Shown here: positions 33,045 through 63,396 of the stretch, piece after piece
Position numbering within the stretch: the stretch's first letter is position 1
Layout of the letters: each line of letters begins with the position of its first letter
From: an uncultured Eubacteriales bacterium
GTDB taxonomy: Bacteria > Bacillota > Clostridia > Christensenellales > Aristaeellaceae
DNA length: 64,000 nucleotides
Direction: 5' to 3'
NCBI GenBank assembly: GCA_900318145.1
Contig: ONJM01000008.1
Coordinates: forward strand, 19,388-83,387
Position numbers and translations under genes: made by a program
The notes under the pieces: generated by a model
What the model was told of the DNA's origin: nothing
What the model saw: the letters and a program-made list of their open reading frames with translations, nothing else
Database searches by the model: none

Positions 33045-33106
33045 ATGGCTGATTCCTCTCTGTCGGAGAAATTCCTGACAAAGCAATCGGTTCCGTCCGG
33101 TGCCGG

Positions 33107-34279: not shown

Positions 34280-34309
34280 TTTGTTTCTCTCCAAAAATGG
34301 TTTCTTTAT

Positions 34310-35486: not shown

Positions 35487-35489
35487 TTT

Positions 35490-36527: not shown

Positions 36528-36552
36528 CTTTTCCTGTCCTTTCCCGTCCGCG

Positions 36553-37722: not shown

Positions 37723-37734
37723 GGAAGGCACCTC

Positions 37735-37783
37735 TTGTTAACCTGTTTGTTAACCATTGTACATTGTTTCCCGCAAATGTCAA
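37735..37783 (-). promoter_or_regulatory. Internal promoter with tandem GGTTAACAA operator-like sites
   Basis: TTGACA-16 bp-TACAAT immediately followed by GGTTAACAA-ACA-GGTTAACAA. Confidence 0.65.
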
Positions 37784-37830
37784 CCGCCTGCAGCACCGGG
37801 CAGGAGGCTCACCCGGCGCCGCGGACGGAT

Positions 37831-38727: not shown

Positions 38728-38730
38728 CGA

Positions 38731-39630: not shown

Positions 39631-39778
39631 GCCCTGTCCCCCCTTTTTTCTCTTTTGAAAAAACGCCCTGTCCGCACAACACGGGCAGGGCGGCCGGTAT
39701 TGACTGGTCGTTTTTGTTCCGCTGATTTTCCGCTCCCCGCGAGGGGGAGCGGAGCTTCAGCGTCAGGCAGCACCGGGA

Positions 39779-46263: not shown

Positions 46264-47118
46264 TCACACGCCGGAATAGGCTGAGAACCCGCCGTCAATC
46301 GGAATCGTCACGCCGGTAATGAAGCTGGCGGCTTCATTGTTCAGCAGGAACAGCACCGCGCCGCTGAGCTCCTTTTCACTGTCGCCGAAGCGTCCCATGG
46401 GGGTCGCCGCCAGGATCTTGCCGGTACGCGCCGTGGGCGTTCCGTCCGGATTGAACAGCAGCGCCTGGTTCTGCTTCGTGGAGAAGAAACCGGGAGCGAT
46501 GGCGTTCACCCGGATCCCGGCTTTGCTGAAGTGCACCGCCAGCCACTGGGTGAAGTTGGTCACGGCCGCTTTTGCCCCGGAATAGGCCGGAATCTTTGTC
46601 AGCGGGCAGTAGGCGTTCATGGAGCTGATGTTCAGGATGCTGCAGCCTTCCCTTCCCACCATCTGCCGGGCAAACGCCTGGGTCGGCAGCAGCGTGCCGA
46701 TGAAATTCAGGTTGAAAACGAATTCCACGCCGGATTTGTCCAGATCGAAGAAGGATTTGGTATCGCTCTCGATGTCGCCCGGCTCAAAGTACTCCTTGTC
46801 CGTCGTGGCTCGGGGATTGTTGCCGCCCGCGCCGTTCAGCAGGATATCGCAGGGGCCGAGATCCGCCAGCACCTGGTCTGCCACGGAATAGCAGATATCC
46901 TTGTCCAGCACATTGCAGCTGTACGCTTTGGCAATCCCGCCTTCGGCCGTAATTTCTTCCGCGAACTGATTGGCCGCGTCGAAGTTCAGGTCCAGCAGCG
47001 CCACCTTCGCGCCTGCCCGGGCCAGCACCTTCGCGAAATAGGAGCACAGGACGCCGCCCGCGCCGGTAACGACGGCCACCTTGCCCGTCAGATCGGTATT
47101 CAGCACATTCTTCTGCAT
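46264..47118 (-). CDS. uxuB: D-mannonate oxidoreductase (SDR type)
   Basis: VTGAGGVLC, NGAGGNNP.ATT, PLTKIPAYSGAK, DGGFSAYSGV; next to uxuA. Confidence 0.88.
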   Translation of the reverse strand: MQKNVLNTDLTGKVAVVTGAGGVLCSYFAKVLARAGAKVALLDLNFDAANQFAEEITAEGGIAKAYSCNVLDKDICYSVADQVLADLGPCDILLNGAGGNNPRATTDKEYFEPGDIESDTKSFFDLDKSGVEFVFNLNFIGTLLPTQAFARQMVGREGCSILNISSMNAYCPLTKIPAYSGAKAAVTNFTQWLAVHFSKAGIRVNAIAPGFFSTKQNQALLFNPDGTPTARTGKILAATPMGRFGDSEKELSGAVLFLLNNEAASFITGVTIPIDGGFSAYSGV

Positions 47119-47122
47119 TTTC

Positions 47123-48202
47123 TTATTTCCCTTTCTGCTCTTTGTCGATCGCTTCCCACAGGCCGTTGATATAGGCGGCGCCCAGCGCGCGGTCATACAG
47201 GCCGTATCCCGGGCGGCCCTGCTCGTCCCAGATCATGCGCCCGTGGTCGGGGCGGATATAGGTATCCGGGCAGGTGTCGTAAATGGCCTTCACGATCTCG
47301 TACAGGTCCAGATCCCCGGTGCTGCTCAGGTGGGCCGCCTCCCGGAAATGATGGTAGCCCAGGTACTTGACGTTCCGCACATGCATGGCCCCGATGCGGT
47401 TCATCCCGCCGAAGTGGCGGATGATGGCCGGAATGTCGTTGTCCGGATTGGATCCCAGGGAACCGGTGCACAGGCAGAGCGTGTTCGCCGGGCTGTCGTG
47501 CAGCTGCACCATTTTGTCAAAATCGTCCTGGCTGTGGGTAATGCGGGGCAGGCCGAAGATCGGCCAGGCGGGATCGTCCGGGTGGCACGCCATGCGCATG
47601 CCGACTTCCTCGCACACCGGAATCACCGCGTCCAGGAAGTATTTGAAATTCTTCCGCAGATCGTCCGGTCCGATATTTTCGTACTGCTTCAGAGTCGTCT
47701 CCAGCAGTGCCAGGCGTTCCGGCTCCCATCCGGGCAGGGTGAAGCCCTTGCTGTCCTCGGCGGTTTTGCGCACGATTTCCAGCGGACCCATTTCGCCCAG
47801 GTCCTTCTCGTCAAAGTACAGGCTGTTGCTGCCGTCTTCCGGAATCACCCGCGCCAGATCCGTCCGCAGCCAGTCGAACACCGGCATGAAGTTATAGATA
47901 ATCACTTTAACGCCGTGCTTCGCCAGCATCCGGATGGTGCTGATGTAGTTCGCGATGTACTCTTCCCGGCTGGGCAGGCCCATTTTGATGTCCTCATGCA
48001 CGTTGACGGACTCGATGACCTCGATCTCCAGTCCGGCTTCGTTCACTTCCTTCTTCAGCGCCGCGAATTCCTCCTCCGGCCAGTCCACGCCCGCGGGTTT
48101 GTCCAGCAGGCCCATCAGGCCGGACATGCCGGGAATCTGTTTCACGTATTTCAGCGGGATCGGGTCGATTGCGCTGCCGTACCAGCGGAATGTCATTTTC
48201 AT
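47123..48202 (-). CDS. uxuA: Mannonate dehydratase
   Basis: [50 protein letters not shown]. Confidence 0.96.
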
Positions 48203-48290
48203 CGTTGTTTCCTCCTTTTCTTTTTAACAGGCCGCAAAGAAGATTCCGGGAATGCGCTTTGCGTCCTTTCGGATCAGAAAAACCTTCTTT

Positions 48291-49118
48291 TCATCCGAGC
48301 ATTTCCTTCAGGATGCCGTAATATTTTGCTTCTTCCTCCGGGCCGTATTTTCCTGCCAGGAACAGCGGCAGGATCTCCTCGCTGAACCGTTTCCAGGAAG
48401 CGGCTTCGTCACCCGGCATAATGGGATAGAACAGGGCGCCTGCTTCATGCGCTGAAATACCGTCGCTGTCGGTATCCCCGAGCATCAGCGCCTTCACATG
48501 ATCCCCGCACCGGGACATGGCTTTTTTCAGCTGCGCTGTCTTGCTCCCGTCCTCCTGGCTCATCATATAGTCCACAAACGGGGTCAGTCCCCCGGCCGCC
48601 CAGTCTTTTTCCAGTCCCGCTTTTGCGGCGGAGGACACCACGGCGATCGCCGCGGACGGCCATGCTTTCTCCATGGCCTCCCGGACGCCCGGATAAGGCA
48701 TCAGCCCCTCGCACGCTTTGGTGAACAGTTCGTCCGCCCGGTCCGACCAGGCCAGTACCCGGTCCAGCTCAGCGGAGGGATGGCCTTCCGTCCAGGCCTT
48801 CAGCGTTGCGGGCGAATAGCGGGTCTCCCCCTGAATATAGGCGCGCAGGTCTTGAAGTTCAGGGAGCCCTTTTTCTTCCGGGAATTCTTTCGCAAGCCGT
48901 TCAAACACCTCCAGCAGTCCCGGAAAACGGTTGATTCCCCGCAGGGAGGAGAAAAGGTTTACCGTCTTTTCGATTTCCGTAAAGCGCGCGGCTGTTTCCT
49001 CCCGCATGGGCCATATTTCAAGCGCCGCGGGAATAAACGCGTCCAGGTGTTTGATATTCATGCTGTCGAAAGCGGTACCGTCCGAATCGATACCGATCAG
49101 AAAACCGGATGGCGTCAT
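48291..49118 (-). CDS. HAD-superfamily phosphatase
   Basis: Motif I DSDGT, motif II VVSS, motif III K, motif IV LGDTDSD. Confidence 0.85.
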   Translation of the reverse strand: MTPSGFLIGIDSDGTAFDSMNIKHLDAFIPAALEIWPMREETAARFTEIEKTVNLFSSLRGINRFPGLLEVFERLAKEFPEEKGLPELQDLRAYIQGETRYSPATLKAWTEGHPSAELDRVLAWSDRADELFTKACEGLMPYPGVREAMEKAWPSAAIAVVSSAAKAGLEKDWAAGGLTPFVDYMMSQEDGSKTAQLKKAMSRCGDHVKALMLGDTDSDGISAHEAGALFYPIMPGDEAASWKRFSEEILPLFLAGKYGPEEEAKYYGILKEMLG

Positions 49119-49133
49119 CAGATTTCCCCCCTG

Positions 49134-50126
49134 TCAGTTGTTTTCAATCGCGTGCAGCCTTTCCTCGACCGCTTTTGTCTTTTCCGCGTCAAGCCCCATA
49201 TAAGCCAGGCTGTCCCGCAGGGTGATCACGCTGGCTGCTGCCGCCGGCGCCGCCTGCTGCCCGCCCGTAATCTCCTCCAGGATCTTTTTCCCTTCGGGAT
49301 GCTCCGCCAGGTACAGCAGTGTGCAGTCCAGGTTCAGGGTTTTCTCCCGGTTGCCGTTGATTTTTCTGCCGAATCGCGGCTCTGTCAGGCCGCTGCTGTC
49401 CATTCCGCCCATCACGTCCGCCAGCCAGCCGATGCTGTCCTCCACCCAGGAAGGGTAGCGGCTGCAGAAGCCCGGGCGGTTGACGCTCGGATCCCCGGTG
49501 GAAAGGCCGTGCGCGCCGTTTGAATAGATATGGCTTTCAAAGGCGATGCCCTGCGCGCAGAGCGCGTCGATCATATGCACCGCGTTGGCAACCGGCACCA
49601 GGTTGTCGGTCCGGGTGGCGAAAACGAAGCAGGGGCACGTGTTCCGGTCCACCGCGGAGGGTACGTCCGGCGCGGAAGGCAGGTAGTCGCGGGCGCAGTC
49701 CCCGTCGATCACGGGGTAGCCCAGAATGGCTGCCGCGGGCCGGTGCCTGGACATCGTGGCCGCGCAGGCCGCCAGGTGTCCGCCGGCGGAGAAGCCGATC
49801 ACGGCAATCCGGTCCGGAACCACGTGCCATTCCTCCGCCCGTGCCAGGATCAGCTCCATAGCCTGCTCATAATCCTCCAGCGGCTGCGGCCACGCGGCCT
49901 GTTCGTTCAGGGAATACCGAAGGATGAATGCCTGGTATCCGGCCTTCAGGTAGGGAAAAGCCACCGGATCCGCCTCCCGGTCGGAGCAGAAATGGTATCC
50001 GCCTCCGGGGATGACCAGCACGGCAGGCCGCGCGGTAATCCCGCCGAATTCACCGCCCGCCGCCTGGAGATATGCGGTAAGGCTGACCTTCCGCGTTTCG
50101 TTCAGGACAATATACTCTTTCTGCAT
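49134..50126 (-). CDS. alpha/beta-hydrolase esterase (acetyl/feruloyl esterase-like)
   Basis: PGGGY oxyanion hole, GFSAGGHL nucleophile, D.LVP, GAHG. Confidence 0.85.
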   Translation of the reverse strand: MQKEYIVLNETRKVSLTAYLQAAGGEFGGITARPAVLVIPGGGYHFCSDREADPVAFPYLKAGYQAFILRYSLNEQAAWPQPLEDYEQAMELILARAEEWHVVPDRIAVIGFSAGGHLAACAATMSRHRPAAAILGYPVIDGDCARDYLPSAPDVPSAVDRNTCPCFVFATRTDNLVPVANAVHMIDALCAQGIAFESHIYSNGAHGLSTGDPSVNRPGFCSRYPSWVEDSIGWLADVMGGMDSSGLTEPRFGRKINGNREKTLNLDCTLLYLAEHPEGKKILEEITGGQQAAPAAAASVITLRDSLAYMGLDAEKTKAVEERLHAIENN

Positions 50127-50138
50127 AGCCGATCCTCC

Positions 50139-51887
50139 TTACAGTCTTGTATCCCACCGTCCGCAGAACACGGTGTCGTCCGCCGTTCCCCGGAAGGCGC
50201 TTTTCCCGGTGATTTTCTCCACAGCTGCCCGGATGTTTTCGCGGTTCGGTCCGTAGGCGTTCACAAAGGTGTGGATGTTCGCGCAGTCAGCCAGGTGATT
50301 GGTGTAGTTCAGGCTGACGCCGACCGTCGGCACCTCTTCCGTATACCAGGGCATCTCCATGCTGTGGCCGCTGCTCCAGCTGAGTCGTTCCACGTTCCGC
50401 TGGGCATATCCCTTGATATTGATGAACACGAACACGATATCGTAATTCTTCCGGAAATCCTCCCGCCGCCCCGGTTGCATCATCCGGACGAAATTCATGG
50501 GGTGTACGCCGTTCTCAATCTCCAGGTCGTAGAAGCTGGGGCACTGGGTAACCGTGAAGCCGGCCCGTTCCAGCTCCTCCGTAATCAGCTGCCGCACGCC
50601 GTCGCCCCGGTAGCCTTTGCTGTTGGGGGTGCTCTGGACGTAGACCAGCAGCGCCCGTTTCCGCTCCGCCGGGCGCACAGGCAGCAGTTGCCGGGTATCC
50701 TTCACCAGGGTCACGCCCCTGTCGGCAGCTTCGGCGGTGTATTGCCTGTGTTCCGCGCAGCCGACCGCTTCCAGCCCGGCTTTTTCCGGATACCGTACGG
50801 AATCCCGGTACAGCTTCAGGTGCGCTTTCAGTCCCAGGATGCGGTGCAGCGCGTCGTCCAGCCGCGCCTCCGTCACGATTCCCCGCTCCATTCCGGCTTT
50901 CAGATATCCCAGGTCTTCCTCGGTGTCGTTGGTGAACAGGAACATATCGCATCCGGCGGCGATGCATTTCGGCACCGCCTCGCTCCGCTTCATCACGCCC
51001 GCCATTCCGATCATATGGGATGCGTCGGAAATGATCAGGCCGTTGAATCCCATCTGTTCCCGCAGCAGATCCTGCAGCAGCTCCGGCGCCAGGGACGCGG
51101 GCATGATCTCCTCGTTCCGGATCCCGGGGCGCAGCTTCCGGCTCATCTGCGGCAGGGAGATCTGCCCGGTCATGATGGTCTCCAGGCCTTCGTCAATCAT
51201 CGTCCGGTATACCCGGCCGTAGCTTTCGGACCATTCCTCCGGGTCCGCTTCGTTATGCGCCGGTGAATTGTGGGGATCCAGCTCGTCCCATCCGTCTCCC
51301 GGGAAATGCTTGCACGTGCAGGCCATGTTCGGCGCCGCGTCCTTGATGCCCCGGATATAGGCCCGTACGCAGTCCGTCACCCGGTCCGCGTCGCTGCCGA
51401 AGGAACGGGTGTTTACAATGGTATTTCGCCAGTTCCGGTATACATCCGCCACCGGGTTGAACATCCAGTTCACGCCGATGGCCGCCGCTTCTTTCCCGGC
51501 TACATACCCCATCCGGTACGCCGTCTCAGTTCCCTCTTCGGCCCCGGCTTCCGCGGCTGTCGCCACAAAGGTGCCTTCCTGCGGCAGCACGCCGTTGCCG
51601 CCTTCGTCGCAGTTCCCGGCGATCAGTACGGGAATCCTGCTGTACCGCTGGAAGAGCGTGTTCTGCCGGAACACGGTTTCCTTGTCTCCGCCCTGCCAGC
51701 GCATTCCGCCCGGCCGGGCGCTTTCCATCAGCGCCCGGATCTGTTCCTCGTCCGCCCCCGGAACCGGCTTGAGCAGCACGAACAGCTGCCTGAGCTTTTC
51801 GTCCATGGTCATGGATCCGATTGTATCCTCCACCCAGCGGATCTCCTCATCGTTGAGGTAAAAAGGCTTTGCTTTCAGGTCAACCAT
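50139..51887 (-). CDS. GH3, Nag3/BglP-like subgroup (variant acid/base loop DPH)
   Basis: KHFPGDGWDELDPH, NTRSFG, LIISDASHM; no signal peptide. Confidence 0.88.
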   Translation of the reverse strand: MVDLKAKPFYLNDEEIRWVEDTIGSMTMDEKLRQLFVLLKPVPGADEEQIRALMESARPGGMRWQGGDKETVFRQNTLFQRYSRIPVLIAGNCDEGGNGVLPQEGTFVATAAEAGAEEGTETAYRMGYVAGKEAAAIGVNWMFNPVADVYRNWRNTIVNTRSFGSDADRVTDCVRAYIRGIKDAAPNMACTCKHFPGDGWDELDPHNSPAHNEADPEEWSESYGRVYRTMIDEGLETIMTGQISLPQMSRKLRPGIRNEEIMPASLAPELLQDLLREQMGFNGLIISDASHMIGMAGVMKRSEAVPKCIAAGCDMFLFTNDTEEDLGYLKAGMERGIVTEARLDDALHRILGLKAHLKLYRDSVRYPEKAGLEAVGCAEHRQYTAEAADRGVTLVKDTRQLLPVRPAERKRALLVYVQSTPNSKGYRGDGVRQLITEELERAGFTVTQCPSFYDLEIENGVHPMNFVRMMQPGRREDFRKNYDIVFVFINIKGYAQRNVERLSWSSGHSMEMPWYTEEVPTVGVSLNYTNHLADCANIHTFVNAYGPNRENIRAAVEKITGKSAFRGTADDTVFCGRWDTRL

Positions 51888-51899
51888 CGGTCTTCTCCC

Positions 51900-52544
51900 T
51901 CATCCTTTTACAATCTCAGTCAGTTCCCGGATGCTTTCCATGTTCCAGTCCCCCGCGCCGTTCTTCGCGGCGTCTCCGACGCAGGCCACCATCATGCCGC
52001 CCCGGTGGCCGGCTTCGGCGCCGGAAACCGCGTCTTCCACCACCAGGCACCGGTCCGCCGGAATTCCCAGCATCTCCGCCGCTTTGACGAACACCTCCGG
52101 ATCCGGCTTGGACCGGGTAATATTGTTGCCGTCGCTCACCGCGTCAAAGTAGTTTCCCAGCCCGATCTGCCCCAGGATAAACGGCGTGTTCTTGGAAGAG
52201 GATCCGATCGCCAGCTTTAGTCCTTTGCCCCGCAGCGCGTCCAGCGTTTCCTTTACCTCCTCCGGCAGGTCCGCCGTACTCATCTCCCGCAGGGATTCCC
52301 GGTACAGGTCGTTTTTCTCCCGGGCCAGATCCTCTTTCTGTTCGGGGCTCAGCGCCGGCCCCTTGTATTTCTCCAGGATGATCTCGAGGCTCGCCATCCG
52401 GCTCACGCCCCGCAGCCGGTTGTTGACTGTCCGGTCAAACGGGATCCCCATGCCGTCCGCCATGGTTTTCCAGGCTTTGTAGTGGTATTCGTCCGTCGAG
52501 CAGATCACCCCGTCCAGGTCAAAGATCACCGCGTCAAACTTCAT
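51900..52544 (-). CDS. pgmB: beta-phosphoglucomutase
   Basis: FDLDGVI, HYKAW, LRGVSRMASL, SSSKN, SKPDPEVF, VEDA. Confidence 0.92.
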   Translation of the reverse strand: MKFDAVIFDLDGVICSTDEYHYKAWKTMADGMGIPFDRTVNNRLRGVSRMASLEIILEKYKGPALSPEQKEDLAREKNDLYRESLREMSTADLPEEVKETLDALRGKGLKLAIGSSSKNTPFILGQIGLGNYFDAVSDGNNITRSKPDPEVFVKAAEMLGIPADRCLVVEDAVSGAEAGHRGGMMVACVGDAAKNGAGDWNMESIRELTEIVKG

Positions 52545-54325: not shown

Positions 54326-57073
54326 TTAAAAAGCTCTCAGTTCAAACAGCCGGCGGGTGCCCTCCGCCACCATCTGCGGATTGAATCCGCGGAAGAACAG
54401 GAACTGCAGTTCCCGCAGGGACATGCTCAGGAATTCCGCGTCCCCGGAGCGGATCAGCCCAAGGGCTTGCGGCAGGTCCTTCTCCAGAACCGCCAGCGCT
54501 TCCGGATCCTCCCGCATCTCGTCCAGCCGGCTTTCCATGCTGTACTTCATCCGGTAATCCCTGTCCGGCCGGTAGGTCTCCTCATATTCGCCGGCCGCCA
54601 GCTCAACCGTCCTGCCCGCTCCCGGCAGCGCGGCTTCCGCGCTGCAGCCAAAGGGAACCCGGAACCGGACCGTCAGCGTTCCGTCCTCATTGATCCGCCA
54701 GCCGGAAGCGTACTCCCCGCTCACGGAATCGTAGGCGCATGAAACCTCCTGCACCCGGAAGGTGGGCTGGGGCTCGAAGCGCACCCGGGTGAAGCCGGGT
54801 TCCGTTCCCCGGATCCCCGCCAGGTCCCGGTATACGTATTCCATCACGGAGCCGTAGGAATAGTGGTTCAGGGAATTCATTTCCGTGCCGGAGATCGTTC
54901 CGTCGTCCAGCACCGAATTCCAGCGTTCCCAGATGGTGGTGGCCCCCAGGCCGACGCAGTGCATCCATCCCGGGAAACCCTTCTGGAAGAGGAAATAGGC
55001 CGCCAGGTCCTCCATCCCGTTCTCCGCCATTACCCGGCACATCATCGTGGCTCCGACAAAGCCGCCCTTGATCCGGTAGCAGTCCTTCTGCAGCCGGGTC
55101 CGGAAATCCGCGGTAATCCGGTCCTTATCGATGTACACCCCGAAGTTCAGGCACAGCAGGTACGCCGTCTGGGTTGTGACAGCCAGCCGTCCGCTGGGGG
55201 TGAAATATTCCCGCAGGATCGCCTCCCGGATCTCCCCGGCAAGCTTTCCGTAATCCGCCGCGTCGCCGTCCTTCCCCAGGATCCGCGCTGCCCGCTCCGT
55301 CTTCCGGGCGGACGCGTAATAGTACATGCTGGCGACGAAATAGTCGTCCGTGCCGCCCTTCATGCTCTGGGGCGTCACCCCGTCCTGGGCCAGCCAGTCG
55401 CCGAAGTGGAAGCCGAAGTTCCACAGCCGGCCGCCGCCCCGCTCATCGTCCTGCCGCCGGATCCACTCCAGCCAGTCCCGCATCATGGGATACTGTACCT
55501 CCAGGTCCGTCCGGTTTCCGTAGAAGTCGTACAGCGTCATCGGCAGGAAGGTGGCGATATCTCCCCATACGCTGGATCCGCCCGGCATCCCGCCCAGGTT
55601 CGGCAGGAAGTTGGCAACCGCGCCGCCGCTTTTCACCTGGTCCGCCCGCAGGTCCCGCAGGAATTTCCGGTAGAATGCCCGGGTGTCCATCTGGAAGCAC
55701 GCCGTAGGCGAGAAAACCTGGGCGTCCCCGGTCCATCCCAGCCGTTCGTCCCGCTGCGGGCAGTCCGTGGGCATATCCAGGAAATTGCTCCGCTGGCCCC
55801 AGAAGGCGTTCTTCGCCAGCCGGTTCAGGGCCGCGTCGGAGGAGCGGAAGCGGATGGAGGTATCCAGCTCTGAGTAAACCACCCGCCCGGTGAAATCCTC
55901 CTTCCGGACCTCCCCGGGCCATCCGGTCACCCGCACATAGCGGAAGCCGAAATACGTGAAGTGGGCCCGCACCGTTTCCTTCCGGCCGTCCGACACGTAA
56001 ATCATCTGCGCCTTCGCGGTGCGGTAGTTGTCGTTGTAGAAGTTTCCTCCCTGCAGGATCTCCCCGTGGTCCAGGACAATCCGCGTCCCGGCAGGGAAAT
56101 CAGCGGTGTATTCCGCGTATCCGGTGAAGTTCTGCCCGAAATCCAGCACCGTTTCCCCGGCAGGGGTCCGGATCACTTCCTGTACAGGCAGGCTGTCCAT
56201 CACGGTCACCGGCAGGCTGCGGCGGTCTGCCAGGGGACGGTCCGGCATCAGCACGGCTGCCCGGTCCGGGTTTTCCTTCCCGTGCCACAGCATCCGGTCC
56301 AGCGTTTCGCCGTCGTAGATATCCGTGGCCGCGAAGTCGCTGCCCCGGTAGCGCCACGTTTCATCCGTGGCGACAATCTGCTCCGTTCCGTCCGCCAGCC
56401 GGATCCGCAGCTCCGCCAGGACCTGGAACCGGTTTCCGAACACTTCCCGCGCGCCTTCATATCCCAGCCGTCCCTTGTACCAGCCGTTCCCGGTAAGGAT
56501 TTCGATCCGGTTTTCCCCGGCGCGGAGCATTCCGCCGGCGTCGTAGGTCTGTACCTGGACCGCTTCGTTATAGTCGTTGCAGAAAGGCGCCAGCAGATCA
56601 TTGCCGGCCTTTTCACCGTTCACATACGCCTCGTAAAGTCCCAGCCCGCTCACGTACAGCCGGGCGGATACCGCCTCCGCCGGCAGTGTGAACGTCCGGA
56701 AGAACACGGGATGAAAACGGTCCTCCTCCCGGGTCCCGATCCATTTTCCGGCCCAGGGCTCATCCATTTTTCCGGTTTCGAAGAAAGAGGTGCCTTCCGC
56801 CCGGTCCCCGGCGTCGCCTTTCACCTCCGCCCGCCAGTAATAGCGGGTGCGCGGCGCGGGAGTAAGCGGAATCTCTTCTCCGGAAGAGCGTAGGACTTCC
56901 CCTGCTTTTTCGTACAGGATACCTTTGAATTCCGGATCTGCCGCCACGGTGATTTTCGTTTCGGCGGGCTTTGCCGATGCGGTTTCCCGGACCTTCCAGG
57001 ACAGGGAAAAATGCGGCAGCGCGAATCCGATCGGTTCACGGATGCCGTTGATGCGGAGGTCGGTCACTTTCAT
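54326..57073 (-). CDS. GH78 alpha-L-rhamnosidase
   Basis: DFGQN, FTYFGFRY, PTDCPQRDERLGWTGDAQ, GATTIWERW, MNSLNHY; no signal peptide. Confidence 0.94.
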   Translation of the reverse strand: MKVTDLRINGIREPIGFALPHFSLSWKVRETASAKPAETKITVAADPEFKGILYEKAGEVLRSSGEEIPLTPAPRTRYYWRAEVKGDAGDRAEGTSFFETGKMDEPWAGKWIGTREEDRFHPVFFRTFTLPAEAVSARLYVSGLGLYEAYVNGEKAGNDLLAPFCNDYNEAVQVQTYDAGGMLRAGENRIEILTGNGWYKGRLGYEGAREVFGNRFQVLAELRIRLADGTEQIVATDETWRYRGSDFAATDIYDGETLDRMLWHGKENPDRAAVLMPDRPLADRRSLPVTVMDSLPVQEVIRTPAGETVLDFGQNFTGYAEYTADFPAGTRIVLDHGEILQGGNFYNDNYRTAKAQMIYVSDGRKETVRAHFTYFGFRYVRVTGWPGEVRKEDFTGRVVYSELDTSIRFRSSDAALNRLAKNAFWGQRSNFLDMPTDCPQRDERLGWTGDAQVFSPTACFQMDTRAFYRKFLRDLRADQVKSGGAVANFLPNLGGMPGGSSVWGDIATFLPMTLYDFYGNRTDLEVQYPMMRDWLEWIRRQDDERGGGRLWNFGFHFGDWLAQDGVTPQSMKGGTDDYFVASMYYYASARKTERAARILGKDGDAADYGKLAGEIREAILREYFTPSGRLAVTTQTAYLLCLNFGVYIDKDRITADFRTRLQKDCYRIKGGFVGATMMCRVMAENGMEDLAAYFLFQKGFPGWMHCVGLGATTIWERWNSVLDDGTISGTEMNSLNHYSYGSVMEYVYRDLAGIRGTEPGFTRVRFEPQPTFRVQEVSCAYDSVSGEYASGWRINEDGTLTVRFRVPFGCSAEAALPGAGRTVELAAGEYEETYRPDRDYRMKYSMESRLDEMREDPEALAVLEKDLPQALGLIRSGDAEFLSMSLRELQFLFFRGFNPQMVAEGTRRLFELRAF

Positions 57074-57158: not shown

Positions 57159-58172
57159 CTATGCTTTAAGCGGTTCCCGCTTCCCGAATATTTTTCCGGT
57201 CAGTTTCCGGATATTCTGTCCCTGCCCGGCCACAAAGTTAACCAGGAACACGAACAGGCCCATCATTGCGGTGGAAATTGCGGCGCCGAGCTCCGCCTTG
57301 AAAACCAGCTGCAGGCCGTATTTCATCAGGCAGATGGAAATGGAGCCCATAATGATGCCGATGGTATCACCGCAGAATACTCCGATATACAGTCCCACAA
57401 ACACCGGCAGGATATTGCTGAACAGCTCGCCCACCGTGCTCAGCGAGGAGAAGATCGCGTCGCGTTTCCCCAGTGAACTCCAGATAATCGTTGCGAATCC
57501 GAAGATCAGGCCGCTGTAGATATAGCTGATAATCACGTTCCGGTTTTCTTTCACGCCGATGTTCACCGCGGACTGCTGGTTCTTCGCCAGCAGTACGCTC
57601 TGCTTGCCTGTGGTTGTCAGGTAATTGTATACCGCGTATACACCCACGGCGCCCGCCAGGGGAATCAGCACCAGCGGATAAGCGGACAGCTGCTTGATGA
57701 ATTTGACGGAAACCAGGTTGATTCCGCCGCCGCCGAAGATCTGGCTGGTAATGGATTCATACAGCAGCGCCATACCGATGGTGGCGATCATGATCGGCAG
57801 CCGCCCGTAAACGTATACCAGGGCCACCAGCACGCTGAAGGCTACGCACAGGCCGACGCAAAGTACCCCGAAGAGCAGGGGGCTGCCTGTTCCGGAGTTC
57901 TTCGCGACGTTTCCCGCGATAATGGCGGAAAGCAGCATGATCGAACCGCCGGAGAAGTCAAACCGCCCGCTCTTGAACTGGAGGCCGATGCCCATGGCGC
58001 AGGCAATGGATACCGCGATACTGGGAATCAGCGCCTGCCACATTTTCATCGTTCCGAAAAAGGTATAGCCGTTGGCGTCGCACAGAATCTTCATGATCAC
58101 GAACATGATCACGGGGAGCATCAGCGTACCGGCCACGCGCTTAAGGATTTCCAATGTTTTCTTCATGGGCAT
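57159..58172 (-). CDS. CUT2 (RbsC-like) ABC permease
   Basis: GRFDFSGG, LPIMIATIG, multi-TM. Confidence 0.85.
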   Translation of the reverse strand: MPMKKTLEILKRVAGTLMLPVIMFVIMKILCDANGYTFFGTMKMWQALIPSIAVSIACAMGIGLQFKSGRFDFSGGSIMLLSAIIAGNVAKNSGTGSPLLFGVLCVGLCVAFSVLVALVYVYGRLPIMIATIGMALLYESITSQIFGGGGINLVSVKFIKQLSAYPLVLIPLAGAVGVYAVYNYLTTTGKQSVLLAKNQQSAVNIGVKENRNVIISYIYSGLIFGFATIIWSSLGKRDAIFSSLSTVGELFSNILPVFVGLYIGVFCGDTIGIIMGSISICLMKYGLQLVFKAELGAAISTAMMGLFVFLVNFVAGQGQNIRKLTGKIFGKREPLKA

Positions 58173-58222
58173 CAGCCTCTTATCATTCGTCGTTCAGGAA
58201 ACAGGGAACAGGGAATCCGTTC

Positions 58223-59377
58223 TTATTTCATGTAGCCTTCCACAGTGAAGCTCTGGCAGTATTCGGTCAGGGCCTTGTAGCTGGCGTCGGGGTTGACGGA
58301 GGTGAAGTAGTCCTTCATGTCGTCCCACTGCGCCTGGGCTTTGCTCACGTCCAGCGTGGGTCCCATGGGGGAATTTTCGATCATGGCCTGGAACTTCGCG
58401 CTGCTGTTGATATCAAACACGGAGGAGTCCATCCGTTCCTTTCCGGGATAGTCCTTGTACATGTTGCCGGAGATGGCGGCATCCAGCATCGCGATGGGCC
58501 AGATGGCGCTTTCAATGCCCTGGATGGTCAAGGAGACGATGTTCTTGTCGTCGCCACAGTCCGCCAGCAGGTCAGGATCGTTGTCAAAACCTCCGGTGAT
58601 CAGCTGCAGGTCTTCGCGGCAGAAGCCCATGGCCTTGGCTTCGATCATCTTGGGATAGATGAAGGTGGTGCCGGCGCAGAAGCCGACGATGCATTCCAGT
58701 TCGTCACGGCCGGGCTCCAGGAAGTAGCTGTCGCTCAGGGGCTGGAAGGCCAGGACTTCCGCGTCGCCGACGATTTCAATGGGTTCCGCGGCAGTCTCGT
58801 TGTAGGCAGCGATCGCGGCACGGAAGGACGCGTCCGCAACCGTGTGCTTCGGATAGGCGAATGCCGGGAAGATGCAGGTAGCAACCTTCTTGTAGCCGCG
58901 GGCGATGACTTCCTTCGCGTATGCTTCGCCCAGGGCCTGGCCGCTGATGTAGTTGTCGCCCATGTTGCCCAGGAACTTTTCCCGGTTCATGGCATCGTGG
59001 CTGGGGCCGTTCTCTTCGAACACGGAATCCATATCGGAGAAGAAGCCGACCACCCACAGGTCCGGATATTCATCCATGATGTTGATCACGCCGCCGTCCA
59101 TGGAAATGATGATTCCCTTGACATCCGAGGTGTAGGAATTCTTGACCTGTTTCAGGTTTCCGGCGGGGTCGTTGGACATATCGCCGTATACAACGTCGAA
59201 GGTGTAGCCCAGGTTTTCGGCGATCATCTTCCAGTACGCGACATAGAACTCATACTGGATTCCGCTGTTCAGGTTGGACAGCCACAGGATCTTGCCTTTG
59301 GACTCGGCGGATGCGGGAGCGATCGCCAGTCCCAGGAGCAGGGCCAGGGTCAGGAGCAGGGCAGTCAGTTTTTTCAT
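58223..59377 (-). CDS. Divergent class I sugar-binding protein of the CUT2 ABC system
   Basis: Signal peptide ending ASA-E; VKGIII and ITGGFD PBP1-like segments; position between the permeases. Confidence 0.75.
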   Translation of the reverse strand: MKKLTALLLTLALLLGLAIAPASAESKGKILWLSNLNSGIQYEFYVAYWKMIAENLGYTFDVVYGDMSNDPAGNLKQVKNSYTSDVKGIIISMDGGVINIMDEYPDLWVVGFFSDMDSVFEENGPSHDAMNREKFLGNMGDNYISGQALGEAYAKEVIARGYKKVATCIFPAFAYPKHTVADASFRAAIAAYNETAAEPIEIVGDAEVLAFQPLSDSYFLEPGRDELECIVGFCAGTTFIYPKMIEAKAMGFCREDLQLITGGFDNDPDLLADCGDDKNIVSLTIQGIESAIWPIAMLDAAISGNMYKDYPGKERMDSSVFDINSSAKFQAMIENSPMGPTLDVSKAQAQWDDMKDYFTSVNPDASYKALTEYCQSFTVEGYMK

Positions 59378-59449
59378 TTGGGGGTTCCTCCTTTATTGTC
59401 TTTGGGGTTAATTTCTCAGGACAGGCGTTCCTGCCTGTTGAAAACGGAA

Positions 59450-60442
59450 TCAGCGGGGCAGCGGGCCGCTCTTCTGGCGGCAGGTAATCAGCACGACCAC
59501 CAGGAAGATAATCGCCTTGATCATGAAGGTCATGCGCGTGGGCACGCCGATGATCGGCAGGCCGACCGCCAGCAGGGAGAACGTCAGGGCGCCGATCACG
59601 GCGCAGGACAGGCGGGACTTCATGCCGCCCTTAAGCGGCATGCCGCCCAGGATCAGGGATACCATGACGTTCATTTCAAATCCGGTTCCCGTGGCGTCCG
59701 AAGCGGCGCCGGTGTAGCCCATCTGGAACAGGGAGGCTGTTACCAGGCAGAAGGCCAGGAAGATGTAGGGGATCACCCGGTACTTGATGATGTTGACGCC
59801 GCTCTGCGCCGCCGCGGTCTGGTTGGCGCCGATGGAACGGGCATACTTGCCGAACTTCGTGAAGTAGAAGAAATAGCCGATTACCAGGTACTCGATCACC
59901 AGCACGATCACCATGTTGACCGGCGACCGGAAGAAGCTCAGGTCCACCCCGGACAGGATGATGTTCTTGCTGCCCACGTTGGAGTAGATGATCGTCGTGA
60001 TCCCGCTGATCACCATCATGAACACCACGGAGGAGATGACGGAATACATGTGCAGCAGCTCGCCCGCGGCGCCGTTGATAATACCGATAATCACGGCGAC
60101 CGCGATGCACGCCAGGATGCCGGGAAGCAGGCTGCCTGTCGCGTTGCCGATCAGCACCAGCATCGTGCTGTACAGGCCTATCTGCCGGCCGATACTTACG
60201 TCCATGTTCCCCAGGGAGTAGATGAATACGGCGCCGACCGCCATCAGTGCGGTCACGATCACGTCTCCGATCAGCGTGGAGAGCTTGTCGCCGGACCAGA
60301 TGCTTTCGCCCTTCAGTCCGGTGCCGATCGTGAAGAAAATAATGCAGAAGACCAGGCCGCCCAGGGAGGCAACGGTGGAACTGTGTTTTTTAATCCACTG
60401 GGTCAGGCTTTGCTTTTCTCTCTCCTGTGCAATCGCAGTCAT
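59450..60442 (-). CDS. CUT2 (RbsC-like) ABC permease
   Basis: GNMDVSIG, TKFGKYARSIGAN..AA..SG, GFEMNV, LGGMPL.GG. Confidence 0.9.
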   Translation of the reverse strand: MTAIAQEREKQSLTQWIKKHSSTVASLGGLVFCIIFFTIGTGLKGESIWSGDKLSTLIGDVIVTALMAVGAVFIYSLGNMDVSIGRQIGLYSTMLVLIGNATGSLLPGILACIAVAVIIGIINGAAGELLHMYSVISSVVFMMVISGITTIIYSNVGSKNIILSGVDLSFFRSPVNMVIVLVIEYLVIGYFFYFTKFGKYARSIGANQTAAAQSGVNIIKYRVIPYIFLAFCLVTASLFQMGYTGAASDATGTGFEMNVMVSLILGGMPLKGGMKSRLSCAVIGALTFSLLAVGLPIIGVPTRMTFMIKAIIFLVVVLITCRQKSGPLPR

Positions 60443-60452
60443 AGCGGCCTCC

Positions 60453-61958
60453 TTAAATCATGTATTCAATCAGGTCGGTTTGCTGCAGTCCCGGATTGCG
60501 CTCCACCTGATGGGTCACCTGAAAGTCCTTCATGATGATCAGCCGGTCCGCCATGCCGATCAGCTCGCTCAGCTCTTCGGAAATCATCAGGATGGCCTTC
60601 CCCTGCTTCTTCATTTCCTCAATCAGCGAGTACATGGCCTGCTTTACGCCGATATCCACGCCGCGGGTCGGGCAGTCCATGATGATGACCTCGGATCCCT
60701 TCGCGGTCCATTTCCCGAAGGAAACCTTCTGCTTGTTGCCGCCGGAAAGCGTATTCACGTACTGTTTCCCGCCGTGGCACTTGATGCGGTAGTTGTCGAT
60801 TTCCCGGTCGCTCAGCTTCTTTTCCGCCCGGGGGCTGATGAAAGTTTTCCGGATCAGCGCCGGAATGGAGGGAAGCACGATATTGTCCTGGATCGGCCCG
60901 TTCAGGATCAGAGCCTCGGTATCCCGGTTCTTGGAGATGTATCCGATGCCGCTGTTGATGGCCTGCAGGGGCGTTTTGATTTCCTTCCCGTTCCGGACAA
61001 CCCGGCCGCCGCTCAGCTTTTCCAGTCCGTAGGCAATACGCCCGATATCGTGCATGCCGCAGCCGCTCAGGCCGCCCATGCCGATGATTTCGCCCTTGTG
61101 CAGCTTCAGGTTGAAATGCTGAATCCTGCCCAGGGATACGTCCTCCAGCTCCAGGGCGACTTCATCCCGGTGGCTGGTGTCGTAATCCTCGCGGTAATAC
61201 TTGTCGCCGATCTCCCGGCCAACCATCATGTACCGGATGGTTTTCACCGAATCCGGAGCGTCCATTTCCGCCCGGTTCAGGTGGCCGATGATTTCGCCGT
61301 CCCGCAGCACGGTCAGGTCGGTGCACTGCTCGAGGATCTCGTCCATGTCGTGGGATACGAAAACGATGCCCTTTCCTTCGTCAGCCATCCTGTGAATCAG
61401 CTTGTACAGGATCTCACGGCCTTCCAGGGACAGCGCCGTGGTGGTTTCGTCCACCACCAGGATTTCCGTCCGGTCCGTCACGCAGCGGACCAGTTCGACG
61501 AGCTTCCGGTCCTCGAAGGTGTATTTGTCGATCAGGTCGCCCGCCTTGATGTGTCCGATGCCGAAGCTCTCCAGCACCTTCCGGGCTTCCTTCTTCATCT
61601 TCTGCATATTGATGATGCCGAATTTCGAGAACTCTGCCTCATGGCCGGAAAAAATATTCTGGGCCACGGTCACGCCCGGAATGGTGTTCGCCTCCTGCAG
61701 GATCATGGAGATCCCGGCATCCTGGGCTTCCACCATGCTGCCCGGCTTCCAGGGCTGACCCTTGTAGAACATTTCGCCCCTTGTCGCTGGCTGCATGCCG
61801 GAGGCTATGGACATGATCGTTGATTTTCCGGATCCGTTCTCCCCGACCAGCCCGCGGATCTCTCCCCTGCGCAGGGTAAAATCCACATCCTTCAGGGCGA
61901 TCGTCGGGCCGAATTCCTTCCGCATGTGCTTCGCTTCAAAAATGATTTCCTTTTCCAT
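60453..61958 (-). CDS. CUT2 sugar ABC ATP-binding protein (RbsA/MglA-like, two NBDs)
   Basis: GENGSGKST, VDETTTAL, LSGGNKQK, DCPTRGVDIG; alternative starts at 61967 and 61979. Confidence 0.93.
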   Translation of the reverse strand: MEKEIIFEAKHMRKEFGPTIALKDVDFTLRRGEIRGLVGENGSGKSTIMSIASGMQPATRGEMFYKGQPWKPGSMVEAQDAGISMILQEANTIPGVTVAQNIFSGHEAEFSKFGIINMQKMKKEARKVLESFGIGHIKAGDLIDKYTFEDRKLVELVRCVTDRTEILVVDETTTALSLEGREILYKLIHRMADEGKGIVFVSHDMDEILEQCTDLTVLRDGEIIGHLNRAEMDAPDSVKTIRYMMVGREIGDKYYREDYDTSHRDEVALELEDVSLGRIQHFNLKLHKGEIIGMGGLSGCGMHDIGRIAYGLEKLSGGRVVRNGKEIKTPLQAINSGIGYISKNRDTEALILNGPIQDNIVLPSIPALIRKTFISPRAEKKLSDREIDNYRIKCHGGKQYVNTLSGGNKQKVSFGKWTAKGSEVIIMDCPTRGVDIGVKQAMYSLIEEMKKQGKAILMISEELSELIGMADRLIIMKDFQVTHQVERNPGLQQTDLIEYMI

Positions 61959-62175
61959 CTGCACCATCCCGCTTTTCAATGAGTCGTCAGTTATGGAGGA
62001 TATGTATTCAGGCGCACCGTTATCTTCATGTACAATATATCATCTTAAATTCCCAAATAACACATACTCGTTTCACTTGTTTTAGCACAATATTCACATT
62101 CTGTTGAAATGATCCTGTTTTCATGATAATGTTAGCACAGAATTAACCTGAGCAATAACGCAAGGGGTGAAATCT

Positions 62176-63396
62176 ATGATCCTGCTGGATCTGCAGGATG
62201 TCTTCCGGATCATCCTGGGTGCGCATCGTGTGCAGTATCTTCTGCTGCGGTCGGACTGTTCCTCTCCCGAGGCTTCCGCCCTGGATTTCCAGTTCCGGGA
62301 CAGGCTGTATGAAAATTTTGATTACGCGGCCTTTGCCCGCGGAATCATGGAGGTCGTCCCGGAGGAATCCGTCATCGATTACAAGGATTCCTTCAGCCTG
62401 CATTATCTTGTTTTCAGGGGGCGGAACACGGAAGCCGGTTCCTTCTTTTTCTTCGGACCCTTCCTGTATCATTCATACGGGGAGGAGGATTTCCTGCGGA
62501 TGGCTGAACGCCATTCGCTGCCGCCGGACGCTCTGGAAGCCATCCGCTGGTATTTCAAGCGGATTCCGATCCTGCACGATTACCTGGCCTGGCAACAGAT
62601 CCTCGCTTCCTTTCTGGCCCGCTATCTGGCCAATCCCGGCCTGGAGATCCTCCGCGTGACCTGGGACAGTCCGGAGCGGTATGAGCGTAAGCCGTCGGTT
62701 GCCCTGTCGGCAATCCCGTATGCCTCTGTGGAAGCCCGTTACGCGGTGGAGGAATCCATGCTGGATGCCATCCGGCGGGGTGATATTGCCGAAGCAACCT
62801 ATCAGCAGAACCTGTTCATGGGTTTCTCACTGGACCAGCGGATCCCGGACCGGCTGCGGGATGCCAAGGATATGGTGATCGCTTTCAACACACTCTGCCG
62901 CAAGGCGATCCAGCAGGCTGCCGTCCATCCGCTGTATATCGACGGGATCAGCGGACAGTTTGTCACGGAAATCGAGGCCGCGGAAAACCCGGAACAGGTG
63001 AATGCCCTGATTCCGAAAATGATCCGCCACTACTGTCTCCTGGTGCAGCAGCATTCGCTGTCCCGCTATTCGGCAACCGTGCGGGACTGCCTGAACTATA
63101 TTGACTTCCATTATATGGAGCCGCTGAACCTGGAAAGTCTCGCCGCCCGTTTTTCCGTGAACAAGAATTACCTTTCAGCCCGTTTTCACAGGGAAGCGGG
63201 CATGACAGTCACGGATTATATCAATCAGATCCGTGTCAACCGGGCCTCCGCCCTGCTCCGCCATTCCTCCCTGTCCATCCGGGAGATCGCCGAGCAGTGC
63301 GGGTTTGCGGACGGCAACTACTTTACGCGGATCTATAAAAAGGTACAGGGCTTCACCCCCAACGACTACCGGAAATCCGCCCAGCGGAACCGCTGA
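62176..63396 (+). CDS. AraC family regulator with large N-terminal sensor domain
   Basis: C-terminal YLSARFHREAG, IAEQCGFADGNYF; divergent from the glycoside operon. Confidence 0.88.
   Translation: MILLDLQDVFRIILGAHRVQYLLLRSDCSSPEASALDFQFRDRLYENFDYAAFARGIMEVVPEESVIDYKDSFSLHYLVFRGRNTEAGSFFFFGPFLYHSYGEEDFLRMAERHSLPPDALEAIRWYFKRIPILHDYLAWQQILASFLARYLANPGLEILRVTWDSPERYERKPSVALSAIPYASVEARYAVEESMLDAIRRGDIAEATYQQNLFMGFSLDQRIPDRLRDAKDMVIAFNTLCRKAIQQAAVHPLYIDGISGQFVTEIEAAENPEQVNALIPKMIRHYCLLVQQHSLSRYSATVRDCLNYIDFHYMEPLNLESLAARFSVNKNYLSARFHREAGMTVTDYINQIRVNRASALLRHSSLSIREIAEQCGFADGNYFTRIYKKVQGFTPNDYRKSAQRNR

Follow-up and report, generated by a model that had tools for sequence, protein, structure and literature searches.

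The analysed window, a 64,000-nucleotide stretch of DNA from a rumen bacterium, carries five genes in a row on the minus strand, encoding GH3-B, an esterase, a HAD protein, UxuA, and UxuB. The short gaps described in the initial annotation were confirmed at 4–88 bp: 12 bp between GH3-B and the esterase, 15 bp between the esterase and the HAD, 88 bp between the HAD and uxuA, and 4 bp between uxuA and uxuB. This row constitutes the end of a longer operon, in which an ABC importer, GH78, GH3-A, and beta-PGM precede GH3-B (Table 1). The open reading frame of the divergent GH2 opens at 63233, has a likely start at about 63440, reaches 803 aa on the contig, and is followed beyond the window by nucleoside-hydrolase-like and PfkB kinase genes. 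The start of uxuB was corrected to the ATG at 47118, 4 bp past the uxuA stop and with AAAGGGAAA just before it; the listed start at 47196 was rejected as too early. A scan for promoters and terminators detected no signal above chance that splits the gene row. Contigs from sheep-gut RNA libraries extend over all of the operon and cross the junctions of GH3-B with the esterase and with beta-PGM; as all matches are contigs, from which depth, transcript ends, and co-transcription are not readable and which do not prove a single transcript, this coverage is weak evidence.

Table 1. Genes of the operon and its divergent neighbours in the window
Feature	Coordinates	Strand	Supporting match
UxuB-function SDR-type D-mannonate oxidoreductase	46264..47118	-	NF006132, 425.2 bits (cut-off 281)
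UxuA, D-mannonate dehydratase	47123..48202	-	PF03786 at 1e-138; NF003027, 454.7 (cut-off 191)
HAD (P0003), 275 aa, HAD-IA	48291..49118	-	HAD_2, weak match, 1e-6; NCBIfam none
Alpha/beta-hydrolase carbohydrate esterase, BD-FAE type	49134..50126	-	BD-FAE at 3e-20
GH3-B (P0001), 582 aa	50139..51887	-	PF00933 at 3.8e-57
Beta-phosphoglucomutase (beta-PGM; P0004), partner of GH3-A	51900..52544	-	TIGR01990, 220.5 (cut-off 189.4)
GH3-A (P0002), 584 aa	52557..54311	-	Closer BglP relative, 468 bits
GH78 alpha-L-rhamnosidase	54326..57073	-	
CUT2-type ABC importer, whole	57159..61979	-	
Importer permeases (n = 2)	57159–58172 and 59450–60442	-	BPD_transp_2
Importer protein, 384 aa, probably binding protein	58223–59377	-	No Pfam match
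Importer double ATPase	60453–61979	-	
AraC-family regulator, divergent from the importer/GH operon	62167..63396	+	
GH2, 5' part, beta-glucuronidase-like	63440..64000	+	NxK motif (GVNAKG)

GH3-B scores 194.5 bits with PF00933 over residues 28–352 (cut-off 27). Its catalytic motif, CKHFPGDGWDELDPH at residues 192–206, is that of the His-acid/base GH3s (NagZ/Nag3/BglP type), with KHFPGDGWDELDPH, K193, H194, D204, and H206 all present. The Asp-His dyad D204/H206 reads 'DPH', the KH pair corresponds to K193/H194, and the nucleophile D288 is invariant in the alignments; these residues, together with R161, are shared with the BglP family. The best PDB match was 5VQD/5VQE, a 'beta-glucoside phosphorylase' (E 6e-107), in which residues 4–582 of the query align with 6–567 of the chain, a full-length similarity of the BglP type. 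No signal peptide was found in the sequence. Judged by these features, GH3-B is a cytoplasmic BglP-family GH3. A complex prediction for GH3-B and the HAD scored 0.00 and gave no verdict.

GH3-B had been described as the second, paralogous GH3 with an altered DPH loop, and this description holds; it shares 39% identity with the upstream GH3-A. The latter has the DQH-type motif KHFPGDGVDERDQH and the beta-PGM-linked signature GGIMYR/FHNPITN, and the gene after it encodes a true beta-PGM (TIGR01990). Given that both GH3s are full-length BglP relatives, phosphate-dependent cleavage by GH3-B is plausible. Comparison of HAD-linked (n = 9) with beta-PGM-linked (n = 4) BglP-like GH3s revealed the fixed differences R63/M, W153/FY, R154/H, and H291/ACP, whose first-named residues are markers of the GH3-B clade and which offer testable specificity residues. 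Extra basic residues (R63, R154, H291, and R253) occur in the active-site motif regions of the HAD-linked clade. In the source genome, the HAD and beta-PGM each occur once and BglP-like GH3s just twice, and in a phylum-wide search of other genomes for BglP-like GH3s at 1e-80, only 2 of 400 matched.

The HAD P0003 carries motifs I–IV of the HAD phosphotransferase superfamily, namely DSDGT (D11-S-D13-G-T), S162, K193, and GDTDSD (G214-D215...D219), which are conserved across 64 sequences. In its cap, K23, R60, N63, R64, and W124 are invariant and H24 is nearly so. The structural model (pLDDT 95.5) displays a Rossmannoid core and a large helical C1 cap; on the strength of motifs and model, P0003 is a catalytically complete HAD-IA protein. 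By fold it comes closest to the MtlD phosphatase domain and to beta-PGM; Foldseek returned only generic HAD-IA folds (E ~1e-6), and the protein Atlas offers only 'HAD-like hydrolase'. No relative was found in the PDB by sequence, and no NCBIfam model matched at 1e-5, so that TIGR01990 did not match either. The subfamily comprises about 517 clusters at 50% identity and, as far as gene context tells, is an uncharacterised, recurrent neighbour of His-type GH3s.

The initial annotation had regarded the HAD as dedicated to GH3-B, and comparative genomics bears this out by showing a HAD-GH3 pairing at the level of gene order. Among 76 loci fetched by HAD-only patterns, many of them from related ruminant-gut MAGs and thus not independent, 53 have a His-type GH3 of 540–580 aa immediately next to the HAD and co-directional with it, on one side or the other, and 57 have a GH3 within 3 kb. 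These loci are distributed over Bacillota, Lentisphaerota, Verrucomicrobiota, and Spirochaetota. Furthermore, the two proteins are fused in opposite orders, as HAD-GH3 (840 aa, the P0245 cluster, with single members on 21 and 15 contigs) and as GH3-HAD (846 aa, P0360). When GH3 partner subclades were placed on the HAD tree, 12 label changes were counted versus 43 after shuffling. The HAD of locus L021 has a dead nucleophile (D11N) in a genome without a BglP-like GH3, the HAD adjoining uxuA alone at L012 is degenerate (DPNGA, K193 lost), and a GH3-B-like gene is present in 4/4 genomes with an intact but unlinked HAD. It is therefore very likely that GH3-B has a HAD partner of its own, separate from beta-PGM.

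Here, the esterase separates GH3-B from the HAD; it is missing at the corresponding position in L016 and L018, and in an 83%-identical ortholog operon the HAD lies on another contig. Because the HAD is also fused to a CE15 glucuronoyl esterase in some proteins and to a protein with a GH42-like N-terminus (seen by eye only), it is not exclusively tied to GH3. In a tally of 124 proteins neighbouring HAD-GH3 pairs, AraC regulators ranked highest (12), followed by transporters, and no single catabolic pathway stood out. Murein-recycling genes were not seen near these pairs.

As anticipated in the initial annotation, uxaC, kdgK, and eda lie elsewhere; they form part of a cluster on contig C35 that reads uxaB-uxaA-eda-kdgK-uxaC-GH28-kduI-kduD. 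The uxuA gene of the operon is the sole copy in the 88%-complete assembly. For the divergent GH2, the best PDB match was the beta-glucuronidase 6MVG (E 7.5e-140), whose GMNHKG aligns with GVNAKG, and the NxK motif together with closest similarity to a solved GUS marks it as a GH2 beta-glucuronidase. In GH2 GUS enzymes, the NxK motif contacts the glucuronate carboxylate. The divergently encoded GH2 can, by this likeness, supply glucuronate, and the circumstance named in advance as refuting a glucuronide-cleaving GH3-B, a GH2 as the source of glucuronate, is therefore present at the locus. Nothing about the uxuAB side of the finding is out of the ordinary.

We propose that GH3-B, a retaining GH3 with an Asp-His dyad, would cleave an imported beta-glycoside, most likely with phosphate rather than water, and that its family membership points to a beta-glycosyl-1-phosphate as the product. 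The HAD, encoded two genes downstream, would be the dedicated second enzyme of GH3-B, either dephosphorylating the beta-glycosyl-1-phosphate or shifting its phosphate to O6. With GH3-B paired with the HAD and GH3-A with beta-PGM, the operon would therefore hold two parallel GH3 modules, the former handling a different sugar and the latter beta-glucosides. As a rough estimate, a GlcNAc-type sugar carries the most weight, short of one half, for GH3-B and the HAD; some other sugar carries a smaller share, and glucuronate the smallest. The uxuA and uxuB genes, riding at the operon end, would represent the genome's only mannonate branch, with glucuronate released by the GH2 of the divergent AraC-linked operon passing through UxaC to UxuB and UxuA. 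We consider this explanation in its entirety moderately probable. That the second enzyme missing from GH3 glycoside-phosphorylase pathways is to be found in the 275-aa HAD subfamily, as a beta-glycosyl-1-phosphate mutase or phosphatase acting on a non-glucose sugar, is a tentative proposal to which we give slightly less than an even chance. The special case in which the sugar is glucuronate and GH3-B the first glucuronide phosphorylase appears improbable.

In the route favoured in the initial annotation, GH3-B is a beta-glucuronide phosphorylase, the HAD a beta-GlcA-1-phosphate phosphatase, and glucuronate proceeds to UxaC, UxuB, and UxuA; we judge this route unlikely. Its phosphorolytic part agrees with the BglP family, and its choice of sugar is not supported. 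GH3-B, the HAD, and the genome's only uxuA and uxuB do share one gene row. Additionally, SN243, the one characterised GH3 beta-glucuronidase, has a D-P-H dyad as well (KHFPGGGPQELGLDPH), and both SN243 and BglP-like enzymes have Asn in place of the Asp of NagZ DQEGG. The basic residues of the GH3-B clade and the HAD cap, rich in invariant Arg, Lys, and His, are in keeping with this route. In all four GH3 subclades, HAD-GH3 modules recurrently have uronate-related genes in their vicinity, including a CE15-HAD fusion adjoining GH3 (L108/L109), CE15 straight after the HAD (L042), PL6 and an alginate-lyase domain with a sulfatase (L073), GH28 (L057, L017), and GUS-like GH2 with uxuAB (L019–L022); neither nagA nor nagB turned up less than 8 kb from the HAD at any of 77 loci. 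However, the GH2 with NxK already explains the glucuronate supply, and linkage of HAD/GH3 to uxuAB is limited to one rumen Clostridia lineage, varies inside it, and is lost in the 83%-identical ortholog operon (GH31 instead) and in L016. The DPH variant is missing in orthologs of GH3-B at 66–67% identity, which read DQH. In SN243, Arg136 at the end of strand 1 ('FVFRN') binds the C6 carboxylate (10.1101/2022.04.25.489410). With the motif register set by eye rather than from structures, this Arg aligns with Gln65 of GH3-B (GGMRWQ, with an Arg two residues earlier), whereas GH3-A and BglP keep Arg. The HAD's other partner GH3s retain the NagZ Asp, and their nearest solved relatives, also in other phyla, are beta-N-acetylglucosaminidases rather than SN243, which is not a leading PDB match for any HAD-paired GH3. 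Other contexts of the HAD point to host-type or GlcNAc-containing glycans (GH29, GH95, GH35, SASA esterase, and SGSH-type sulfatases), and a phosphorylase followed by a phosphatase would bring no gain over a hydrolase and save no energy.

HAD phosphatases are common passengers of sugar operons, and GH3-B might be a plain hydrolytic exo-beta-glycosidase, a glucosidase or hexosaminidase, beside a mechanistically unconnected housekeeping sugar-phosphate phosphatase. The HAD is not adjacent to GH3-B here and is unlinked in several relatives, and several tested His-type GH3s are without phosphorylase activity (PMC6572805). Nevertheless, we assign this reading only a low probability, a shade below that of the glucuronide route, as it leaves unexplained the abutting pairs in four phyla, the two independent fusion orders, the way HAD clades group with GH3 subclades, and the decay of the HAD where a BglP-like GH3 was not found. 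It is highly improbable that the HAD of the Clostridia lineage serves hexuronate catabolism independently of GH3-B, acting on a phosphorylated metabolite of the uronate pathway. The HAD does occur there with uxuA/uxuB, GH2, and AraC but without GH3 in three arrangements (L019, L020/L022, and L021); HAD-uxuA-uxuB, uxuB-HAD-uxuA, and GH2-HAD orders are seen without GH3, and the branch leading to the P0003 clade in the HAD tree is long (1.08 changes per column). Yet the arrangements all come from one lineage, possibly from one ancestral locus, and two HADs beside uxuA without GH3 have lost catalytic residues while uxuA remains 93–95% identical; HAD-uxuA adjacency was set aside as weak independent evidence because of this single lineage and these two degenerate HADs. 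Moreover, the UxaC/UxuB/UxuA/KdgK/Eda pathway requires no phosphatase.

To our knowledge, only two GH3 phosphorylases have been characterised, and whether His-type GH3s act as phosphorylases in vivo is disputed. The conserved and sometimes fused partner from a phosphotransferase superfamily names a candidate for the next step of beta-sugar-1-phosphates and offers an independent, genetic line of evidence for the release of sugar phosphates by many His-type GH3s inside cells. If the proposed pairing is correct, GH3-B and the HAD would make up a new phosphorolytic route of two enzymes; should the HAD be a mutase, this route would save ATP and the pair would be of use in making beta-sugar phosphates. 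The chemistry of the HAD, as phosphatase or mutase, we infer. Two considerations count against phosphorolysis by this pair: a phosphatase partner would make it energetically pointless, and mutase activity is purely inferred. A literature search in which subscription journals were thinly covered found no described HAD partner of GH3 phosphorylases and, in agreement with the initial annotation, no glucuronide phosphorylase.

Among known systems, BglP (AUG44408; 5VQD/5VQE) is reportedly a metagenomic GH3 retaining beta-glucoside phosphorylase, described by Macdonald et al. in JBC in 2018. It resembles both GH3s in full-length homology (362 bits for GH3-B and 468 bits for GH3-A), two-domain size (~570 aa), the KHFPGDG...D-x-H dyad motif, and the Asn replacing the NagZ DQEGG Asp. 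GH3-B differs in DPH versus DQH, Arg63, Gln in place of the canonical strand-1 Arg, NWRNTIV versus NPENPIT, DASHM after the nucleophile, and a new HAD rather than beta-PGM as gene partner. SN243 (7QE1/7QE2) is a secreted, hydrolytic NagZ-type beta-glucuronidase of ~880 aa (10.1101/2022.04.25.489410); it shares the Asn at the O4-binding position, but GH3-B is only distantly homologous to it (E 5e-11 vs 6e-107 for BglP) and no closer to it than to enzymes of other specificity. P0003 resembles beta-PGM (PgmB), which acts together with phosphorylases yielding beta-Glc-1-P, in its HAD-IA fold, helical C1 cap, DxDGT/V motif, and gene position directly beside a phosphorylase; beta-PGM is among its best fold matches (TM 0.57/0.70), and by our own reading H24 lies one residue off beta-PGM His20. 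In contrast, P0003 has a cap ~50 residues longer and does not keep the distal-phosphate motif of beta-PGM, S-K-N following motif II. MupP, which dephosphorylates MurNAc-6-phosphate during cell-wall recycling in Pseudomonas (PMC5371407), is likewise an HAD-IA phosphatase sharing a pathway with a NagZ-type GH3, but P0003 does not match the MupP NCBIfam model. The His-type GH3s LpqI and Herbaspirillum NagZ are plain hydrolases (PMC6572805), and the dyad alone is therefore no guarantee of phosphorolysis. Nag3 of Cellulomonas fimi, a beta-N-acetylglucosaminide phosphorylase (Macdonald et al., JBC 2015, as summarised in PMC8950772), is a His-acid/base GH3 yielding a beta-sugar-1-phosphate; its proposed role is peptidoglycan recycling, and the accessible account does not describe the fate of beta-GlcNAc-1-P. 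Judging from that description, Nag3 differs from the present operon, which combines glycoside import with a rhamnosidase and an esterase, and the HAD is a candidate for the step after beta-GlcNAc-1-P.

The HAD protein encoded behind GH3-B (P0003, 275 aa) represents a previously undescribed HAD subfamily, a conserved and sometimes fused partner of His-type GH3 enzymes, which constitutes the new result of this analysis. All four HAD phosphotransferase motifs are present, and its AlphaFold model (pLDDT 95.5) shows an HAD-IA fold whose helical cap is enlarged. Its closest structural matches, at weak E-values, were to the MtlD phosphatase domain and to beta-PGM, and searches for relatives of the protein returned neither an NCBIfam match nor a PDB relative by sequence. 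A profile search across 1.84 billion representatives recovered approximately 517 HAD clusters at E<=1e-30.

Patterns derived from the HAD alone retrieved 77 genome loci, 76 of which hold a HAD. In 53 of these 76, the HAD gene has a same-strand GH3 of 540-580 aa as its immediate neighbor on one side or the other, and 57 have a GH3 within 3 kb. The pairs are known from Bacillota, Lentisphaerota, Verrucomicrobiota, and Spirochaetota, often as two-gene units that frequently adjoin an AraC regulator. The GH3 partners fall into four subclades, one BglP-like and three NagZ-like, which the HAD clades track (12 label changes versus 43 when shuffled). Fusions to NagZ-like GH3s occur in both orders: HAD-GH3 proteins of 840 aa (P0245, P0248, P0249, and L046:5627-8149), whose cluster includes single members found on 21 and 15 contigs, and a GH3-HAD protein of 846 aa (P0360). 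The source genome contains one HAD of this subfamily, one beta-PGM, and only two BglP-like GH3s; with GH3-A adjoining the beta-PGM, the HAD pairs naturally with GH3-B. In relatives, the HAD directly follows the GH3-B gene (L016, L018, L023, L026, L067, and L079) or precedes it (L006). The initial proposal of a HAD dedicated to GH3-B is very probably right with respect to the partnership, given the abutting genes, both fusion orders, and clade tracking, but its tie to glucuronides is not supported.

The fate of the HAD where the GH3 is missing points in the same direction. A HAD beside uxuA in L021 (3935-4840) has lost its nucleophile (D11N), and no BglP-like GH3 was found in that genome; another, alone beside uxuA (L012/L013:8001-8828), is degenerate, with DPNGA and a lost Lys. 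These genes resemble decaying remnants. In each of four genomes whose HAD is intact yet unlinked, a GH3-B-like gene is present. Although the numbers are small, their consistent direction suggests that the HAD depends on a GH3.

The five genes initially described on the minus strand were confirmed, and they form the tail of a longer row comprising a CUT2-type ABC importer, a GH78 rhamnosidase, GH3-A (P0002, 584 aa), a beta-PGM (P0004) scoring above the TIGR01990 cut-off, GH3-B (P0001, 582 aa), the esterase, the HAD, UxuA, and UxuB. The longest uxuB reading frame (46264-47196) overlaps uxuA by 74 bp and was rejected in favor of an ATG at 47118, which has a ribosome-binding site and lies 4 bp past the uxuA stop. 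A site scan detected no promoter-like or terminator-like sites above chance inside the row. Contigs from sheep-gut RNA libraries span all parts of the row and run across two of its gene junctions, although a single transcript is not provable from contigs. A 384-aa protein encoded between two permeases, lacking Pfam and NCBIfam matches, is probably the binding protein of the importer; in two RNA libraries, contig depth across the operon peaked at this gene. A separate mannan-type cluster in the window encodes a GH2 mannosidase-like protein, two GH130 enzymes, a LacI regulator, an N-acylglucosamine/cellobiose 2-epimerase-like protein, and two CUT1 permeases; a further product lacking a Pfam match is probably a binding protein.

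Coordinates of genes and clusters in the window
Feature	Positions	Strand	Remarks
GH3-B	50139-51887	minus	PF00933 at 3.8e-57; motif CKHFPGDGWDELDPH
Alpha/beta-hydrolase esterase, BD-FAE-type	49134-50126	minus	
HAD (P0003)	48291-49118	minus	weak score
UxuA	47123-48202	minus	
SDR-type D-mannonate oxidoreductase (uxuB)	46264-47118	minus	
384-aa protein	58223-59377	minus	
AraC regulator	62167-63396		divergent from gene row
Mannan-type cluster	30666-41134	minus	

The uxuAB portion of the row is ordinary. The source assembly is an 88%-complete, 3.2-Mb rumen Clostridia MAG, with close homologs in gut MAGs of goats, yaks, sheep, and deer, and its one uxuA copy lies inside the window. As anticipated, uxaC, kdgK, and eda reside elsewhere in the genome, on contig C35, in the cluster uxaB-uxaA-eda-kdgK-uxaC-GH28-kduI-kduD.

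Several loci displayed further associations. In P0268 and P0246 (L108:1626-3629 and L109:1226-3229), a CE15 domain (GCE_fung, 120 bits) and the HAD form a cytoplasmic fusion of 667 aa. An L009-type GH3 lies immediately downstream, and esterase genes of the CE4 and SGNH types precede the fusion gene. An esterase-rich operon (L042:1-13036) encodes a 710-aa protein, a GH29 fucosidase, two SGNH esterases, GH3, HAD, and CE15, followed by a beta-lactamase-fold protein and a further SGNH esterase. In Verrucomicrobia bacterium IMCC26134 (CP011265; L073:4917-13424), a PL6 chondroitinase-B-like protein, an SGSH-type sulfatase, HAD, GH3, an alginate-lyase domain, and an MFS transporter are encoded in a row that suggests a locus for acidic or sulfated glycans centered on the HAD-GH3 pair. 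The HAD also occupies the C-terminus of P0288 (981 aa), P0330 (575 aa), and P0322 (431 aa), behind N-terminal domains that by eye look like GH42, Cof-type HAD, and GNAT. Past the window, the source contig (C29; L091:1621-6161) carries a GUS-like GH2, an IU_nuc_hydro nucleoside-hydrolase-like gene, and a PfkB kinase, a trio not usually expected at a glucuronide locus; a comparable PfkB also lies close to the HAD in L027 and L028.

It is rather unlikely that the sugar handled by GH3-B is glucuronate, and the full route initially envisaged, a glucuronide phosphorylase with a dedicated HAD feeding uxuAB, is less probable still. The putative glucuronide specificity faces a simpler rival explanation. 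The contig continues with the AraC gene and, extending beyond the window, an 803-aa GH2 for which the beta-glucuronidase 6MVG is the top PDB hit (E 7.5e-140). This enzyme carries the NxK motif (GVNAKG) and can supply glucuronate by hydrolysis. A phosphorylase followed by a phosphatase would offer no saving over a hydrolase. The variable linkage of uxuAB among close relatives likewise argues against glucuronate: the 83% ortholog operon carries GH31 rather than uxuAB after the esterase, the L016 row ends at the HAD, and L015 and L018 carry an inserted GH39. The HAD-uxuA-uxuB, uxuB-HAD-uxuA, and GH2-HAD arrangements belong to a single lineage (UxuA 93-95% identical) and may stem from one ancestral AraC/GH2/HAD/uxuAB locus.

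Comparison with SN243, a NagZ-type enzyme (7QE1/7QE2) and the only characterized GH3 beta-glucuronidase, points both ways. It shares the D-P-H dyad variant with GH3-B and has Asn where NagZ has Asp, both counted for glucuronate together with the basic residues gained in the GH3-B clade; however, its carboxylate-binding Arg136 aligns by eye with Gln65 of GH3-B. Against glucuronate, the NagZ-like HAD partners elsewhere retain the DQEGG Asp, and the solved enzymes they resemble most are beta-N-acetylglucosaminidases (6K5J, YbbD) rather than SN243. Other HAD-GH3 contexts, with GH35, GH29, GH95, SASA esterase, and SGSH-type sulfatases, fit GlcNAc-containing glycans, and the presence of nagA and a nagB-like gene in the source genome counts against glucuronate. 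In its favor, nagA and nagB were absent from the 8-kb surroundings of the HAD in all 77 loci, L108 and L109 encode a CE15 glucuronoyl-esterase domain joined to the HAD immediately upstream of a GH3, CE15 follows the HAD in L042, and PL6 and alginate-lyase domains flank the verrucomicrobial pair.

The DPH variant is limited to the closest GH3-B clade; orthologs at 66-67% identity have DQH. Comparing nine HAD-adjacent with four beta-PGM-adjacent BglP-like GH3s revealed fixed differences at four GH3-B positions: 63 (R in HAD-linked, M in beta-PGM-linked enzymes), 153 (W versus F/Y), 154 (R versus H), and 291 (H versus A/C/P). The sites map to strand 1, to the loop that leads into the substrate-binding R161, and to a point three residues past the nucleophile. 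Such differences argue for a GH3-B product other than beta-Glc-1-P and provide residues that can be tested. GH3-B conserves the KH pair, R161, the D204/H206 dyad, and the nucleophile D288, and no signal peptide was found in its sequence. Phosphorolysis is plausible and may fairly be drawn from the family as treated in a review (PMC8950772), yet family membership gives no certainty, as phosphorylase activity was not seen for LpqI or for another NagZ (PMC6572805). The solved beta-glucoside phosphorylase BglP (5VQD/5VQE) matches both paralogs, which are 39% identical, over their full length (GH3-A, 468 bits; GH3-B, 362 bits), and the phosphorylase reading of GH3-B, though plausible, places it in a known enzyme class.
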